A DNA stretch of 64,000 nt, taken from sequence record PX246731.1, one strand, 5' to 3'. The position numbers and the translations under genes are program-made. The stretch is from a phage. Below, piece after piece: positions 7,512 through 16,865 of this stretch. The notes beneath the pieces were generated by a model. The model made no database searches. It saw nothing but the letters and a program-made list of their open reading frames with translations, and was not told where the DNA came from. Every line of letters begins with the position of its first letter. The first letter of the stretch is position 1.

Positions 7512-7694
7512 ATGCTAATCCCTTTTGAAGTAATCTTTCAGCTAATACTGATAGTTTTATCTGTACTGGTTCTGTCTACAATAGTTCATGCCCACAAATC
7601 TAAGTTTGCTTATTACTACTATGGAGCATACTCACTAGGCTGCTTTGTAATGGCAGGATGGATAGCTTTTGCTATCTACTGTGTAAACAACTAA
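7512..7694 (+). CDS. small membrane protein (60 aa)
   Basis: ATG with GGAG RBS; the listed GTG start at 7479 lies inside the terminator hairpin; two hydrophobic helices. Confidence 0.5.
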   Translation: MLIPFEVIFQLILIVLSVLVLSTIVHAHKSKFAYYYYGAYSLGCFVMAGWIAFAIYCVNN

Positions 7695-7721
7695 CCCTCT
7701 TAACGGAGGGTTTATTTTTTT
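7695..7721 (+). terminator. rho-independent terminator
   Basis: CCCTCT-TAAC-GGAGGG then TTTATTTTTTT. Confidence 0.7.
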
Positions 7722-7768
7722 ATCTGTCATGTATACTAACTCTGCTATTTACTTATGAGGAAATTGAT

Positions 7769-8602
7769 ATGCCAACTTTGAAAGTAGGTTTTAACAAAAC
7801 CACTAATGTTGCAACTGTACTGGATGCCAGTGGCTCTATCCCAGGTGGTTCCGTAGAAGTAGGAACCTTTGTACATCCAGATGCCACTTACCCTGATAGC
7901 TTAGTTATCTATCATGGTGTTCGTGACCTGCTGTATAAACGTTCTGCCAAAGACCCTAGTAAAGCAGGCTTCTGGCCTAATAACATCGTGGATATGCAGT
8001 CTATCTCTATTGATATGAAAGCTACTCCACGACTGACTATTGCTACTAAACTGCCTCGTGTAGTCTCTGCTATTGAAGGTGAAGGCATCAACTGGCATAT
8101 TGATGTAGTAGGCGGTAAAGCACCATTTACTTATAAATGGCAATTCAAAGCTAATACCGCTGGTGCAACATTCGCTGATATTAGCTCCAGTACTAACCCA
8201 TCTGCTGCTACTGCAACACTGACACTTAACGACGTAACAGCTGCTTCCGCTGGTACTTATAAAGTGATTGCTACTGATGCTAATGGAACCACGGTAGAAG
8301 ATACGTCACTGCTGGCTGTAGGCTACTACGAAGCAAGCTCCCTGGTAGCTACTCCTGCTTCACTGGCTCTGTCTGTTGCTGCCGATCTTGCTGCTGGTAA
8401 GACTGTAACAATTGCTGCTATGCCTGTTGGTTCTTCTGCTGGTACTTTGTCTATCAAAACTGCTCCAGATTCTGGTCGTGCTACGGCTACCATTGCTGGT
8501 AACGTACTGACAGTTAAACCAGTAGCTGCTGGTGATGCTACTTCTGTAGTAGTTACCAACGGTACGGTCGATGTAACCATCGCTGTTACTGTTGCAGAGT
8601 AA
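7769..8602 (+). CDS. Ig-like domain protein, probable capsid decoration protein (N4 gp17-like)
   Basis: Ala/Thr/Val-rich beta-strand-type sequence (TYKWQFKA...SAGTYKVIATDANG) reads as Ig-like; listed start 7658 spans a terminator, so ATG 7769 with GAGG RBS is used; flanked by strong terminators. Confidence 0.55.
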   Translation: MPTLKVGFNKTTNVATVLDASGSIPGGSVEVGTFVHPDATYPDSLVIYHGVRDLLYKRSAKDPSKAGFWPNNIVDMQSISIDMKATPRLTIATKLPRVVSAIEGEGINWHIDVVGGKAPFTYKWQFKANTAGATFADISSSTNPSAATATLTLNDVTAASAGTYKVIATDANGTTVEDTSLLAVGYYEASSLVATPASLALSVAADLAAGKTVTIAAMPVGSSAGTLSIKTAPDSGRATATIAGNVLTVKPVAAGDATSVVVTNGTVDVTIAVTVAE

Positions 8603-9442: not shown

Positions 9443-12243
9443 ATGGCAAGCATCGACTCCTTGACTGTATGTAATTCACGTCAAGCTCGTAACTTTATTA
9501 TCCGTGCCCTGAAAGCAGGTAACGTACCGTTCCTGACTTCATCACCTGGCATGGGTAAATCTGCAATCATTCGTTCTATTGCAGAAGAATTTGGTATGAA
9601 GTTAATTGACCACCGTCTATCTACTTCTGCCCCGGAAGACCTGTCTGGCTTACCTTTCCGTAATGGTGACCGTGCAGAGTTTATTCCATTCGCTGACTTA
9701 TTCCCCATTGAGGGAGACGAAGTACCAGAAGGCTATAATGGCTGGCTCTTATTCCTTAACTGACGGGGCTTCATGAGAGCAATCTCATGTCGAAAGTTAC
9801 CTAAACAGGGAACCTCTTCTAATATGGTTGGCTCAGGTGTATACTTGAGTTTTAATCAATTGGAGACAATCCTGTGCTAAATAATGAAATTTGGAAAGAT
9901 GTGCCCGACTTACCGTATGAAGTTTCCAACTTTGGTGTAGTACGCCGAAAAGAAGGAAAGTATAAATACAAAAATAGGACACATATAAAACCGTATCTTA
10001 ATAACAAAGGGTACTACTGCGTGAACCTGTACATGAATAGTAAAGTGTACAAATATCAAGTTCATCGTCTGGTAGGCATAGCCTTTGTACCAAACCCCAA
10101 TAACTATCCAGTTATTAATCATATAGATGGAAACCCTCTTAATAACCACGAGAGTAACCTGGAATGGTGTACCCAGTCCCAAAATATTAAACATGCTTGG
10201 GATACTGGATTATTGTCAAACAGACATGCCAACGCTAGTAACAAAAATCGTGGAGGCTCCTCCAAATACGTAGGTGTATCCTGGAGTGAGCAAAGACAAA
10301 GATGGTGTGCCCATATAAGGGTTAACAAGAAATCTATTGGTTTGGGACGTTACAAAACAGAGGAAGAGGCTGCCAAAGCCTATGACTCCTACGTAACTAA
10401 CAACAATCTTACACAGATTGGGTACAGTACCAATTTCATTTAAACGCCAAACGACTATCGAAAACACACAGAAATGTGGAAGTGAGTAGAGTAGGGTGCA
10501 AGCCAATGGCACTCGAAACGGTAACAGCCCTAGCAATAGGGCTTTGATATAGTCTCCTCTGCATGGTGACATGCAGCAGTCAGTATTCACTGAGTGTACT
10601 GACGGCATTAGTAGTTGCGAACTAATGTGAAGATAATGCGACGAGTTCAACTCAGCTAAGAAAGAAGTAGTAGCTGCTGCATACAAGCTGATTCTCGACC
10701 GTATGACTGGTCAGAAAAAGCTTCATCCTAACGTGATGATTGTCTGTGCTGGTAACAAAGCTACCGACCGTGCCATTGTTAACCCATTGGGTACTGCAAT
10801 GCAGTCTCGTGTGGTTCACTTTGAAATGGAACTTAACTTCGACATCTTTGTTGAAGACGTAATGATTCCTCAGCAATGGGATGAACGTCTGGTTGCATTC
10901 TTACATGCTAACCCAGGTTACCTGCATGACTTCGACCCAGCACACAAGAACAAAACGTTCTGTTGCCCACGTAAACACACTGCGATTCAGGGGAGTAATT
11001 CCCTGTCTAAAGCTGCCTAAAACGGGAAACACTTTACATTCTGTTGCCTAAAGGTAATATGTAAAAGTCAATCCGTTACTAAATTGGGAGTCAGCATGAG
11101 TGAGATTTGGAAAGATGTTGTTGAATTTGAAGGTTTATACCAAGTATCTAATACAGGTAAATACCGTAAGCATGAGTCACGCCAATCTGTAAATAAGTAC
11201 AGAGAAGTTAAGCCCCTTATCAGGGCACTTAACAAGAACCGATTAGGTTATCTGTATGCCTCTATGTACAAAGATGGGAAGACTCATAAGAAAACTATTC
11301 ATCAACTCGTTTGTGCAGCATTTAAACCAGGCTTTAAGTATGGTGATCCTGTTAACCACTTAGATGGTAATAAGGAGAATAACCATGAAGACAACCTGGA
11401 ACCATGCACCGCACAAGACAATAATCTCCATGCTCATAAAACTGGGCTAGCCCCTAAACCAGGTAAGTCTGTGTACCACAATGTGCACATACGTCGTAGT
11501 AAGTATAAAGATAAAATTTACACTTATTACGAAGCCAAGGTTAAAGATAATTACAAGGTAGTATTCTACAAACAGTTTAAAGATGAGGTAGCTGCTGCTA
11601 AAGCCGTAGATGCCTATCTGGACTCAATTGGGGATACTAGACGTAAACGTAATTTCTGACTTCCATAAATGTCCAACGACTATCCCGGGGAGGGAGTAGA
11701 GCATAAGCCAATGATGCTCGAAATGGTAGCCACCCTACAGGTAATGCTAAGGGTGTTGATATAGTCTAGTCTGCATGGTGACATGCAGCAGTTCATAAGA
11801 GAACGGGCGTAGTCTTGCGAACTACGTCGAATATCACGACCTGGGACTTTGTTAATAAAGACCTCAAGAACCTACCGGAAGGTGCTCTGCCTGATGAGGA
11901 TTCTATCTACTATGCAGGACACGTTACTGCTGGTAAGGCTACAGAGTTTGTTCAGTTTACACAGGTGTACAATCGTATCATTACGATTGAGAAAGTAGTC
12001 AAAGACCCACTGGGCTGTGCACTACCGGAAGATAACAACCTGTGCTGGGCTACTGTTAACCATCTGGCTAACAAAACTACTGAAGAGAACTTCGCTGATG
12101 TTCTTCAGTACATTGAACGCTTTAAAACGTTCACCCATAAGATTCTGTACTTCCGTACAGTAGGCAATGCATTACCAGATCTTCAGGCTACCCCTGAATG
12201 GCGTAAGGCTGCTGCTAATATCTCTCGCTATATTCACGGATAA
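9443..12243 (+). CDS. AAA+ ATPase (MoxR/AAA_5-like) split into three exons by two group I introns; predicted exons 9443-9756, 10639-10972, 11839-12243 (351 aa after splicing)
   Basis: Walker A SSPGMGKS in exon 1; joining exon 1 to exon 2 recreates Walker B LLFLDEF; all three exon frames are continuous and sum to 1053 nt; splice points approximate. Confidence 0.6.
9757..10638 (+). mobile_element. group I intron 1 (approximate ends) carrying an HNH homing endonuclease ORF
   Basis: Contains sequences matching group I core elements as recalled: P-like CCTAAACAGGGAA, R-like CAACGACTATC, S-like TGATATAGTC; intron ends in G and the 5-prime exon ends in U under the proposed junction. Confidence 0.55.
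9874..10443 (+). CDS. HNH homing endonuclease with C-terminal AP2-like DNA-binding domain (intron-encoded)
   Basis: HNH-type His/Asn motif (HRLVGIAF...NHIDGNPLNNHESNLEW) and AP2-like YVGVSWS...RWCAHI...GRYKTEEEAAKAYD; GTG start with GGAGA RBS. Confidence 0.7.
   Translation: MLNNEIWKDVPDLPYEVSNFGVVRRKEGKYKYKNRTHIKPYLNNKGYYCVNLYMNSKVYKYQVHRLVGIAFVPNPNNYPVINHIDGNPLNNHESNLEWCTQSQNIKHAWDTGLLSNRHANASNKNRGGSSKYVGVSWSEQRQRWCAHIRVNKKSIGLGRYKTEEEAAKAYDSYVTNNNLTQIGYSTNFI
10973..11838 (+). mobile_element. group I intron 2 (approximate ends) carrying an HNH homing endonuclease ORF
   Basis: Shares P-like GCCTAAAACGGGAAAC, R-like CCAACGACTATC and S-like TGATATAGTC plus the 3-prime TTGCGAACTA block with intron 1. 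Confidence 0.55.
11096..11659 (+). CDS. HNH homing endonuclease with AP2-like domain (intron-encoded, paralogue of 9874-10443)
   Basis: N-terminal SEIWKDV...EGLY motif shared with the first endonuclease, HNH core and AP2-like C-terminus; ATG with GGGAG RBS. Confidence 0.7.
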   Translation: MSEIWKDVVEFEGLYQVSNTGKYRKHESRQSVNKYREVKPLIRALNKNRLGYLYASMYKDGKTHKKTIHQLVCAAFKPGFKYGDPVNHLDGNKENNHEDNLEPCTAQDNNLHAHKTGLAPKPGKSVYHNVHIRRSKYKDKIYTYYEAKVKDNYKVVFYKQFKDEVAAAKAVDAYLDSIGDTRRKRNF

Positions 12244-12250
12244 TCACAAC

Positions 12251-13426
12251 ATGAACCAATTTCCTCAGCACACACTTAGTGATGAACAACTCATGCGTGA
12301 GTATGACCGTATTCAGGCTCAGGCCTTCCTGGGCAAGTCTGCTGCGTTCTTTGGTTCATTGCTGTGTAGTCTTAAGTTCTCATGGAAACGTGAGGATTGC
12401 CCCACTGCATGTACTGATGGGATAGAACTCCATTTCAACCCAGACTTCTTTATCTGGATGTGTCCAGATGCAAGAGAAACAGTATTAATGCATGAACTAT
12501 GGCATGTAGCATATCTACATGACATCCGTCGTGGAAGCCGTGACCCGGAAATCTGGAACCAGGCTTGTGACCACTTCATTAACCTTCAGTTAGAAGAAGA
12601 TGGTTACAAGTTCACTGGCATTGACAAAGGCATTTGCAAAGACCCTCAATATAAAGGATGGGTCGAAGAAGACATCTACGATGACCTGATGAAGAACCCT
12701 CAGAAAAGGCAGAAGCCGTCAGGGGGTGCTGGAGCAGGTCTTGCTGGCGACATGAAATCCCCCACTTCGGGGCAGTCCCAGGGTGCTGTTGTCAACAACG
12801 TAGTACGTGCAATGCAGAGCCAAAAGATGGCTGGTGGAACAATGCCCGGTAAGGGTGCTGGTCGTATGGAAGAGGTTATTACCCAATTCCTTAAACCAGT
12901 GGTTCCATGGCAGGAAGTTCTCATGAACTTCTTTACCGACATTGATGACACACATTATACGTGGGCCAGACCTAACCGTCGTTACACTGACATCTATCTA
13001 CCTTCACTGGAAGATGATGAAGGTCGTTTACGCCACTTAGCCTACTTTGAGGATGTGTCTGGTTCTATTAGTAGTGCTGACTCTCTGCGTTTTAACTCAG
13101 AGGTCGCCTATGTTAAGAGCCAGTTTAATCCTAAGAAGATGACCCTAATTACCTTCGACGATACTATTCAAGAAGAGATAGACATCACTGAAGAAGATAC
13201 TTTTGAAGAGATTAAGATTACTGGTCGTGGTGGTACAAACCTGGAACCAGTACGCGAGTGGATTATTAAGAATAAGCCAACCGCTGCAATCATATTCTCC
13301 GATATGTATGTTCGCCCAATGGAAGAATTGCCATTTGATATCCCTATCATCTGGTGTGTTCTGAATAATCCTAATGCTACCGTACCTTTTGGGGAGGTAG
13401 TTCATATCCCTAAAGGAATGAAATAA
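12251..13426 (+). CDS. vWA-like protein with metallopeptidase-like HExxH domain (DUF2201-like), partner of the AAA ATPase
   Basis: MHELWHVAYLH motif; Gly-rich linker; sits directly after a MoxR-like ATPase; start reassigned to ATG 12251. Confidence 0.55.
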   Translation: MNQFPQHTLSDEQLMREYDRIQAQAFLGKSAAFFGSLLCSLKFSWKREDCPTACTDGIELHFNPDFFIWMCPDARETVLMHELWHVAYLHDIRRGSRDPEIWNQACDHFINLQLEEDGYKFTGIDKGICKDPQYKGWVEEDIYDDLMKNPQKRQKPSGGAGAGLAGDMKSPTSGQSQGAVVNNVVRAMQSQKMAGGTMPGKGAGRMEEVITQFLKPVVPWQEVLMNFFTDIDDTHYTWARPNRRYTDIYLPSLEDDEGRLRHLAYFEDVSGSISSADSLRFNSEVAYVKSQFNPKKMTLITFDDTIQEEIDITEEDTFEEIKITGRGGTNLEPVREWIIKNKPTAAIIFSDMYVRPMEELPFDIPIIWCVLNNPNATVPFGEVVHIPKGMK

Positions 13427-15478: not shown

Positions 15479-15921
15479 TGCGTATTCCATTCCTAAGAAA
15501 AAGAGAACGAAATCCTGTTCTTTATAATAAAGGCATAGAGGATGAGTATGAACTCAACCGTAAAGCTCGTTCCTACACAACAAAATTATTCATGGGGACT
15601 AAAAACCCTGATAGATTATTGGACTTTGTTTTTGAACAAGTCTTTATCATATACAGCTTAGCTATGTCTGCTGGTTCACAAGAAGTGAGTGATAAGGCAA
15701 GAGATGCTCTCTGTATGCTCCATAAAGAGTATGAAGCCCTCATGTATGAAGACTTATACTCCTTTAAAAAAGAAACCGCTGTAGCGTGTTCTGTGGCTCT
15801 TACTGAAGGTGTAGCAGTATTACAGGAACTACCTCGTAGTGAGTTTAAGCTGGTATACGTTCAGGTTAAGAAAATCACAGAGACGAGAAGTGGTATCACC
15901 AACTATCTAAGGTCATTCTAA
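15478..15921 (+). CDS. hypothetical protein (147 aa)
   Basis: ORF with overlapping start (TAATG). Confidence 0.55.
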   Translation: MRIPFLRKRERNPVLYNKGIEDEYELNRKARSYTTKLFMGTKNPDRLLDFVFEQVFIIYSLAMSAGSQEVSDKARDALCMLHKEYEALMYEDLYSFKKETAVACSVALTEGVAVLQELPRSEFKLVYVQVKKITETRSGITNYLRSF

Positions 15922-16865
15922 TGATTAAGGCAACTGTCATTGCAGATTCCGTTCATCCAGAAACAGGAACTCGTATCACAACCTTTGAATTGGTTTACCC
16001 CCGATTCATTCACAGTGAGTTTATGACTCACCGTGTATTTAACCGTAACGCTTCAAGCAGTCGTGCTATCCCAACTGCTAAGTTCATCGAACAGGTTCGT
16101 AATGAACCAGTGATGCCAAGTCACTGGGGTAAGAACCAGAAAGGTATGCAAGCAGAGGAAGAACTCACTCCTTTGGAGATTGTAGACGCTACATTTGCAT
16201 GGAAGCAAGCTGCCACAAGTGCAGCTATCTATGCTGAAATCCTTCGTCGTGGGCAAGTACATAAGCAAATTGTTAACCGTATTCTGGAACCGTTCACACA
16301 TATCCGTGTAGTGGTAACTTCAACTAGCTGGGCTAACTTCTATGGATTGCGTGACCACAAAGATGCACAACCAGAGATTCGTAAACTGGCTCAAGCAATG
16401 CGTAAGGCACATGAGGAAAGTACGCCAAGGGCATTACCATATGGGCAATGGCATCTACCTTATATTGCTCATATTGACCGTGTTGGGGCTTACAATTTCT
16501 GCAAACGTAATCGAATTACACGCGATGAACCAAGTGATGCAGAAGTGCATGGACTACTTCTCAAAGTAAGTGCTGCACGTTGTGCCCGTGCTTCATATAA
16601 CAACTTTGAAGGACGCCCGTCCACTATCGAAGAAGATCTCGGTTTATTTGCTAAGTTAGTGGAAAACCAACCTATTCATGCTTCCCCAACGGAACATCAG
16701 GCTACGCCTATGAACCTTGGTGAGAAGTACGTGAATAACATGAACCCAGTTACATGGGAGCAAGGTGTTACATCCATGGATAAAGAAGGGAATCTGTATT
16801 CAGGTAACCTGCTCCACTTTATCCAATTCCGTAAGTTAATTCCTGGTGAGACTATTACTGAATGA
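15921..16865 (+). CDS. thyX: flavin-dependent thymidylate synthase ThyX
   Basis: ThyX signature RHR...S...SxR present (THRVFNRNASSSRAIP). Confidence 0.8.
   Translation: MIKATVIADSVHPETGTRITTFELVYPRFIHSEFMTHRVFNRNASSSRAIPTAKFIEQVRNEPVMPSHWGKNQKGMQAEEELTPLEIVDATFAWKQAATSAAIYAEILRRGQVHKQIVNRILEPFTHIRVVVTSTSWANFYGLRDHKDAQPEIRKLAQAMRKAHEESTPRALPYGQWHLPYIAHIDRVGAYNFCKRNRITRDEPSDAEVHGLLLKVSAARCARASYNNFEGRPSTIEEDLGLFAKLVENQPIHASPTEHQATPMNLGEKYVNNMNPVTWEQGVTSMDKEGNLYSGNLLHFIQFRKLIPGETITE

Follow-up and report, generated by a model that had tools for sequence, protein, structure and literature searches.

A conserved gene pair of N4-like phages links a MoxR-like AAA+ ATPase, interrupted by two predicted group I introns, to a predicted zincin-vWA protein of the DUF2201 family

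What could a phage gain from an AAA+ ATPase encoded directly ahead of a protein that looks part metallopeptidase and part vWA domain? The question is raised by positions 9443-13426 of a phage sequence (record PX246731.1), analysed as a stretch of 64,000 nucleotides (nt) that we call the window. A sequence-only reading of this stretch had proposed here a MoxR-like AAA+ ATPase, split by an intron and paired with a second protein of the vWA/metallopeptidase type. The observation was confirmed and the interpretation is supported; the pair itself is already known as the conserved N4-phage genes gp24 and gp25 of the core-gene literature (PMC4193335). The bounds were also exact, as the ATPase gene opens with its ATG at 9443 and the stop codon of the second gene ends at 13426.

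According to genome matches, the window belongs to Gamaleyavirus (G7C-like, N4-like; Schitoviridae, Enquatrovirinae). The best nucleotide match of the region is Gamaleyavirus NAN33P5, with 100% coverage and 95.8% identity; most relatives align over just 56% of the query because inserted elements are absent there. In the intron-free relative St11Ph5 the matching genes carry the notes gp24 (ATPase, 350 amino acids, aa), gp25 (391 aa) and gp26 (dCTP deaminase). The window genes are orthologous to N4 gp24 and gp25 and have the same order and orientation, with a dCTP deaminase gene downstream; they differ from the N4 locus in the two HNH-bearing group I introns of the ATPase gene and in an Endonuclease VII-type gene after gp25.

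Earlier work on 25 N4-like phages counted gp24 and gp25 in a core of 14 genes and found them to be transcribed as middle-class genes in N4 (PMC4193335; PMC2784036); both are among the five of these 14 core genes that had no assigned function (PMC4193335). With modest confidence we propose that the pair is an ATP-driven, target-specific protease or maturation device of the pre-replicative (middle) phase of infection, a concrete and testable model for two N4-like core genes. What the analysis shows is how the genes are built, which domains and folds they encode, which motifs are invariant and how the two genes are linked in phages and plasmids. No new kind of system is revealed; what is added is the breadth of the module in phages and plasmids, a set of invariant residues and the load of introns and inteins carried by both genes.

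The claim that an AAA gene and a vWA gene recur together as a two-gene module was borne out. Among 78 IMG/VR loci found with a gp25 profile, 74 show a gp24 homologue that lies upstream in the same orientation, usually no more than tens of bases away; the remaining four are uninformative because they are cut at a contig end, which makes the informative count 74 out of 74. The module was likewise seen at all ten plasmid loci and in two unrelated phages, and the co-occurrence check across N4-like genomes found the genes to be co-conserved. Phage records with a homologue number 752 and 829 for the two proteins, and their profiles of host genera are nearly the same. Outside the N4-like group, jumbo phage WPEC3 has the two genes side by side, and three small open reading frames (ORFs) lie between them in Rhizobium phage TM27B.

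A profile search of genome contigs returned only N4-like contigs binned into metagenome-assembled genomes (MAGs). N4-like gp24/gp25 pairs (50-55% identity) also stand on two contigs assigned to bacteria, L006 (Roseococcus MAG, 296 kb) and P0152 (Mesorhizobium, 153 kb); these could reflect binning or mis-assembly of phage DNA, or else an integrated or episomal N4-like element.

The ten plasmid loci came from Burkholderia, Ralstonia, Variovorax, Rhodovastum, Synechocystis, Thermus, Allomeiothermus, Deinococcus, Arcobacter and Miltoncostaea. In every one of them an ATPase matching the N4-like gp24 profile (E-values 1e-11 to 1e-46) is located 0-2 genes from the DUF2201 gene, DUF2201 being the family of the gp25 orthologue (see below). 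Four of the five plasmid ATPases scanned (gp24 profile E-values 1e-23 to 1e-43) passed the Pfam AAA_5 threshold. The Prokaryotic Genome Annotation Pipeline (PGAP) has named the ATPase ‘MoxR family ATPase’ at five of the ten loci, including three of the four AAA_5-passing cases.

Some plasmid versions carry additional genes. A conserved gene of ∼300 aa is situated between the ATPase and VWA genes on alpha- and betaproteobacterial plasmids (4 of the 10 loci; 30-57% mutual identity); its product has no homologue in the window or at the other phage loci and no informative Pfam match. In Arcobacter the same middle position is taken by a 330-aa gene not detectably related to the ∼300-aa protein, while in the Thermales versions a HEAT/LRV-repeat protein adjoins the pair. 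The ∼300-aa and HEAT/LRV-repeat proteins may represent a third component or a client of the pair.

The ATPase of the window carries the Walker motifs of an AAA+ protein. In an alignment of 28 homologues, down to 50% identity, the residues G38, K39 and S40 of Walker A (PGMGKS, aa 35-40) and D106 and E107 of Walker B (LLFLDE, aa 102-107) are invariant. The same is true for N144 (in AGN) and R162 (in SR), which are found at the expected strand ends in the structure model and are a putative sensor-1 residue and a putative arginine finger. The motif HRLSTSxPEDLxGLP, invariant or nearly so, falls within a 40-residue insert between strands beta2 and beta3. As the model we used an AlphaFold2 prediction for P0121, an orthologue 97% identical to the spliced window ATPase (predicted local distance difference test score, pLDDT, 85.3), in which an AAA+ core is followed by a helical C-terminal region. 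The predicted fold most resembles dynein, midasin, CbbQ and NorQ, members of the MoxR/helix-2-insert (H2-insert) clade, and the model contains the H2 insert. In sequence searches generic AAA was the only Pfam family above threshold (27.2 bits), midasin was the sole match in PDB (E = 3.7e-4 with the single sequence, 0.0028 with a profile), and the protein is ∼62% identical to a record annotated as gp24. The description ‘MoxR-like AAA+ ATPase’ is therefore right at the level of the clade, by fold, H2 insert and linkage to a vWA partner; yet this ATPase forms a divergent subfamily of its own.

The second protein is indeed 391 aa long when translation starts at the ATG at 12251, as in annotated orthologues; the mechanical ORF opens at 12167, has 419 aa and overlaps exon 3. 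Both domain types foreseen for it were matched far beyond chance: Pfam DUF2201_N (E = 1.8e-56, 192.2 bits against a cut-off of 23.2) and the VWA-like DUF2201 (E = 3.4e-35, 121.3 bits against 26.4), that is, both domains of the DUF2201 family (PF13203 and PF09967) in the expected N-to-C order. The HExxH motif is present in LMHELWHVAYLH (aa 79-90), and the Gly-rich character of the linker is evident in PSGGAGAGLAGD (aa 155-166) and MAGGTMPGKGAG (aa 192-203). In the gp25 model (pLDDT 76.9) the N-terminal domain (aa 10-150, pLDDT ∼90) and the C-terminal domain (aa 260-391) are confident, and the linker falls below 50 at aa 157-164, 202-221 and 232-256. A fold search assigned a Rossmann-like vWA fold to the modelled C-terminal domain. 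Searches of PDB by sequence, with a single sequence or with a profile, gave no match for gp25; among protein libraries NCBIfam gave no match and PADLOC none of significance. An orthologue in a 70,153-bp IMG/VR contig (L029) is ∼61% identical.

Conservation of gp25 was assessed in an alignment of 14 homologues, 20-30% identical to the window protein, which included proteins of jumbo, rV5-like and Vi1-like phages, of Bacillus phage G and five plasmid proteins. Over all 14 the residues H81, E82, H85 and H90 of the extended motif HExxHxxxxH are invariant, as are R93, N103, A105, D107 and N111. The complete MIDAS motif (for metal ion-dependent adhesion site) is also invariant (D268, S270, S272, T329 and D351), and R243 and R244 of the linker are nearly so. 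The third zinc ligand would be expected among the conserved residues, with H90 and D107, both invariant, as candidates. The N-terminal domain shows weak secondary Pfam matches to Peptidase_M48 (5 of 11 members), to SprT-like (3 of 11, best E = 1.4e-5), to M78 and to PhageMetallopep.

In two genomes gp25 appears as two ORFs, in U1G (L002 3443-4617) and in pSb-1 (L003 3471-4602). A real split between domains was considered and dismissed: each break is a 1-nt deletion within a homopolymer run (G or C) of the Gly-rich linker, most likely a sequencing error.

How might the two proteins work together? In MoxR-vWA systems generally, a peptide is captured at the MIDAS site of the vWA protein, and the protein bound in this way is remodelled by the AAA+ ring (PMC7159879). 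In the NorQ-NorD system a hexamer acts with one VWA protein, whose MIDAS binds an acidic patch of the target and whose N-terminal domain is held on a disordered linker (PMC9976466). By analogy, gp24 would be the motor, of the MoxR/midasin/dynein (helix-2-insert) clade, and probably forms a hexameric ring on which the vWA domain of gp25 would dock. A specific target protein would be held by an acidic residue at the metal site of the MIDAS, the ring would use ATP hydrolysis to remodel or extract this target, and the tethered HExxH zincin domain would cleave it. We infer ring formation, the gp24-gp25 interaction, proteolytic activity and the existence of a single target; the middle-phase timing in the window phage is presumed from N4. 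That catalytic and MIDAS residues alike stay strictly invariant from phages to plasmids argues for the use of both activities. The wide host range, and the occurrence of the pairing on plasmids of bacteria far apart, make a target peculiar to N4 biology unlikely. Residues on which the model can be tested are K39 and E107 of the ATPase, E82 of the peptidase domain, D268 of the MIDAS and R243/R244 of the linker.

Several facts weigh against this protease or maturation device. The MoxR-VWA pairs known so far act as chaperones or insert metals and are not proteases. The window ATPase stays under the Pfam cut-offs for AAA_5 (17.4 bits, cut-off 22) and bpMoxR (13.8 bits, cut-off 27), and bona fide MoxR proteins were not retrieved from PDB by sequence. 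No structural relative of the gp25 N-terminal domain was retrieved, the fold-search matches being filled by vWA, so that the peptidase assignment rests on Pfam and the motif. In rV5-like and Vi1-like phages and in Bacillus phage G no ATPase was detectable within 3.5 kb of the DUF2201 gene. Literature searches turned up no experiments on gp24 or gp25 from any phage. It is possible, though in our judgement somewhat unlikely, that the pair is a pure chaperone, or an assembly or metal-insertion system like NorQD, CbbQO or RavA-ViaA, in which the zincin-like domain serves only for binding or metal handling or for self-cleavage of gp25. Every characterised MoxR-vWA pair is a remodeler or insertase (PMC7159879; PMC9976466), and gp25 is laid out like NorD and CbbO, with a disordered linker that joins an N-terminal domain to a C-terminal vWA domain. 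Still, E82 and all three histidines are invariant in very distant homologues, as expected of an active peptidase. Moreover, gp24/gp25 differ from NorQ/NorD, CbbQ/CbbO and RavA/ViaA in the HExxH zincin nature of the gp25 N-terminal domain, in a minimal vWA domain of ∼130 aa, in the extra conserved helical C-terminal region of an ATPase too divergent for Pfam AAA_5/AAA_3, and in the lack of any client metallo-enzyme gene linked to the pair at the phage and plasmid loci. Midasin/Rea1, with AAA modules and a MIDAS domain that also match by fold, is a single giant eukaryotic polypeptide of ribosome biogenesis and has no peptidase domain.

Zincin proteases of the SprT/Wss1/Spartan type work together with Cdc48/p97, an AAA+ protein. 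One specific form of the protease reading would have gp24/gp25 clear DNA in a similar way, by extracting and cleaving host or pilot proteins bound to it tightly or covalently, so that incoming mobile DNA, be it a phage genome or a conjugative plasmid, can replicate. This combination of a small HExxH zincin with an AAA+ motor is shared, the N-terminal domain has the weak SprT-like matches given above, and the sampled loci, on phages and plasmids, usually lie beside genes linked to replication, nucleotides or transfer, for example the dCTP deaminase gene of the window; DprA and ThyA in the jumbo phage; DnaN-like, type IV secretion system (T4SS), Toprim/ParB, RNase HI, UvrD-like helicase and PD-(D/E)XK nuclease genes on plasmids. 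However, gp24 belongs to another AAA+ clade, Pfam scans detected no DNA-binding domain in either protein and no ubiquitin-binding module was found; M48 and M78 are matched too, and the resemblance is a lead rather than an established homology. The neighbourhood evidence, drawn from phage and plasmid loci, is anecdotal and does not establish restriction to mobile elements; we consider DNA clearing quite unlikely. A counter-defence or host-takeover protease, degrading a host immunity or housekeeping protein, would agree with the presence of the pair in both phages and plasmids, with expression before replication (PMC4193335) and with some plasmid copies being located amid toxin-antitoxin and DUF262 genes; it looks improbable for a strictly conserved core gene of N4-like phages with very different hosts, which would be unusual for anti-defence, and PADLOC gave no significant matches. 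A chaperone of virion morphogenesis has a precedent in an archaeal virus whose MoxR-vWA pair is described as acting in tail development (cited in PMC7159879), and in jumbo phage WPEC3 the pair adjoins virion structural genes. Such a role is highly improbable, as N4 gp24 and gp25 are middle, not late, genes in the replication arm (PMC4193335) and homologous pairs exist on plasmids, which have no virion. Finally, gp25 orthologues are named ‘HNH endonuclease’ in PHROG 1314 and in many RefSeq records (NC_070873, NC_070872, NC_023719 and others). No HNH family matches the 391-aa protein; its only matches are DUF2201_N and DUF2201, with a zincin HExxH motif and a vWA fold at the C-terminus. An HNH endonuclease is virtually excluded, and the label, widespread as it is, is a propagated mis-annotation corrected here.

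A wider reading extends the protease or maturation device beyond phages. The DUF2201 family comprises 21,339 representative clusters at E <= 1e-3 and more than 14,000 at E <= 1e-10. Literature searches for DUF2201 returned unrelated papers only, those for COG3864 none, and those for sll7029 and for Schitoviridae/vWA nothing relevant; the CRISPRi-ART paper makes no mention of N4, gp24 or MoxR. One could speculate that the pair is the phage branch of a large, essentially undescribed mobile-element system, present in phages and in plasmids of at least six bacterial lineages, in which a MoxR motor, a MIDAS clamp and a zincin protease would extract and cut a DNA-bound or host protein for the establishment and replication of newly arrived mobile DNA, on the principle of SprT/Wss1 with Cdc48. 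We regard this as unlikely. If it were true, the introns and inteins that have repeatedly invaded both genes, described below, would be a sign that the genes are indispensable.

The ATPase gene had been read as intron-split. The split is real, with three colinear blocks in comparison with the St11Ph5 gene, while the number of introns had to be revised from one to two. Exon junctions were taken from the alignment with this intron-free gene; each is ambiguous by 1 nt, and the choice was made by requiring, as is the rule in group I introns, a U ahead of the 5′ splice site and a G at the end of the intron. The spliced ORF has 1053 nt, encodes 350 aa and is 97-99% identical to intron-free orthologues. 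Precise presence or absence among relatives, the U/G splice-site rule, an ORF restored upon removal and an internal homing endonuclease were all observed. The Rfam model Intron_gpI (RF00028) scored 32.6 bits (E = 1.3e-5) for intron 2 and 18.9 bits (E = 0.16) for intron 1; neither reaches the gathering score of 50, as ORF insertions split the intron core, and nothing in the whole window scored at the gathering threshold. From these sequence features we classify both as group I introns, homologous to each other. To give the 350-aa protein, the ATPase mRNA must shed two predicted self-splicing introns.

Neither intron occurs in St11Ph5, nor in the majority of Gamaleyaviruses. Within the phage collection searched, full-length copies of intron 1 were found in just NAN33P5 (100%) and U1G (95.4%), and intron 2 was full-length elsewhere in NAN33P5 alone (99.2%); thus NAN33P5 is the one other database record with both, and U1G has intron 1 alone. 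The 3′ core, of ∼150-180 nt, matches group I introns of hundreds of phage genomes. The ribozyme halves of intron 1, intron 2 and a third intron, from pSb-1/PW8, have ∼74-78% mutual identity, with the core of intron 1 ∼74% identical to intron 2 and to the pSb-1 intron; the two intron-encoded HNH endonucleases are 34% identical to each other.

Other N4-like ATPase genes are interrupted near aa 67 (pSb-1 and PW8, loci L003/L004, as well as L031 and L091), near aa 120 (L057) and at aa 216 (L036), and pYD6-A, Pylas and pVco-7 have related introns in their ATPase genes. We document this gene in N4-like phages as a hotspot of one group I intron family, with each insertion in an invariant motif. Phage group I introns of the T4 td type, with HNH or GIY-YIG endonucleases, have the same endonuclease ORF, the same placement in most conserved codons, the same U/G rule and the same patchy presence among close relatives. 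What differs is the use by one family of at least four sites of the ATPase gene (∼aa 67, 105, 120 and 216), two of which are filled simultaneously in the window.

The partner gene is not spared. Two gp25 homologues, P0244 (519 aa) and P0249 (701 aa), contain an intein (Pfam Vint/Hint and Intein_splicing) at ∼aa 97-102, in the peptidase domain and right before the invariant WNxACD motif. With introns in gp24 and inteins in gp25, self-splicing mobile elements target both members of the pair.

Table 1. Features of the gp24/gp25 locus in the window, followed by extra genes at plasmid loci (coordinates of the respective locus)
Feature	Coordinates	Strand	Remarks
ATPase exon 1	9443..9756	+	aa 1-104 + 2 nt of codon L105; Walker A, HRLSTSxPEDLSGLP; by BLASTN vs St11Ph5, junctions and alignment
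Predicted group I intron 1, 882 nt	9757..10638	+	within codon L105, just ahead of Walker B D106-E107
HNH homing endonuclease of intron 1, 189 aa	9874..10443	+	Pfam NUMOD4 + HNH_3 + AP2; PHROG 59
ATPase exon 2	10639..10972	+	last base of codon 105 to R216; D106-E107, putative N144 sensor-1, putative R162 finger
Predicted group I intron 2, 866 nt	10973..11838	+	between codons R216 and T217 of invariant CCPR/TWDF motif (insertion at the slash)
HNH homing endonuclease of intron 2, 191 aa	11084..11659	+	Pfam NUMOD4 + HNH_3
ATPase exon 3	11839..12243	+	aa 217-350 + stop; helical C-terminal region (AlphaFold2 model of orthologue P0121)
gp25 orthologue, N-terminal zincin domain, aa 1-150	12251..12700	+	Pfam DUF2201_N; HExxHxxxxH aa 81-90 = nt 12491-12520
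gp25 orthologue, Gly-rich linker, aa 151-259	12701..13027	+	mostly disordered; W..P.RR...YLP motif (R243-R244), nearly invariant
gp25 orthologue, minimal vWA domain, aa 260-391 + stop	13028..13426	+	MIDAS D268-x-S270-G-S272 = nt 13052-13066, T329, D351
Endonuclease VII-type gene, 180 aa	13426-13968	+	Pfam E = 7.4e-19; between gp25 and dCTP deaminase gene
dCTP deaminase, 150 aa	13958-14410	+	divergent allele (168 aa in St11Ph5)
Extra plasmid genes (∼300-aa middle / HEAT/LRV)	L017 3070-3999, L100 5036-5935, L101 5058-5984, L104 5104-5997; L019 2036-2926; L102 4758-5942		

Downstream of gp25, the Endonuclease VII-type gene is not present in St11Ph5, and the dCTP deaminase allele of the window has scant nucleotide similarity to its St11Ph5 counterpart (Table 1). 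The former looks like a free-standing homing endonuclease tied to a resistant allele of the neighbouring gene. Scans for promoters and terminators gave nothing beyond shuffled expectation. Farther out, the content is ordinary for N4-like phages: an upstream ORF (7658-8602, +) is the counterpart of the Hoc-like Ig-domain decoration protein of relatives, and a downstream ORF (15921-16865, +) has a ThyX-like (flavin-dependent thymidylate synthase) RHR...S motif.

Some further observations concern the phages in which the DUF2201 gene stands without a neighbouring ATPase. ATPase homologues do occur elsewhere in rV5-like genomes and in phages of ∼143-149 kb (the Vi1-like size class). A hidden ATPase beside the DUF2201 gene of the rV5-like and Vi1-like phages and of Bacillus phage G was considered and rejected, as hhalign gave a probability of ∼0.1 and the candidates are not homologues. 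In MaxTheCat, an rV5-like phage, the gene that comes immediately upstream of DUF2201 (L016 2424-3401) is named ‘anti-sigma factor’; it has no Pfam match and is unlike gp24. In the rV5-like phage NHEP1 an ATPase homologue is located ∼4 kb from the DUF2201 gene, on the opposite strand.

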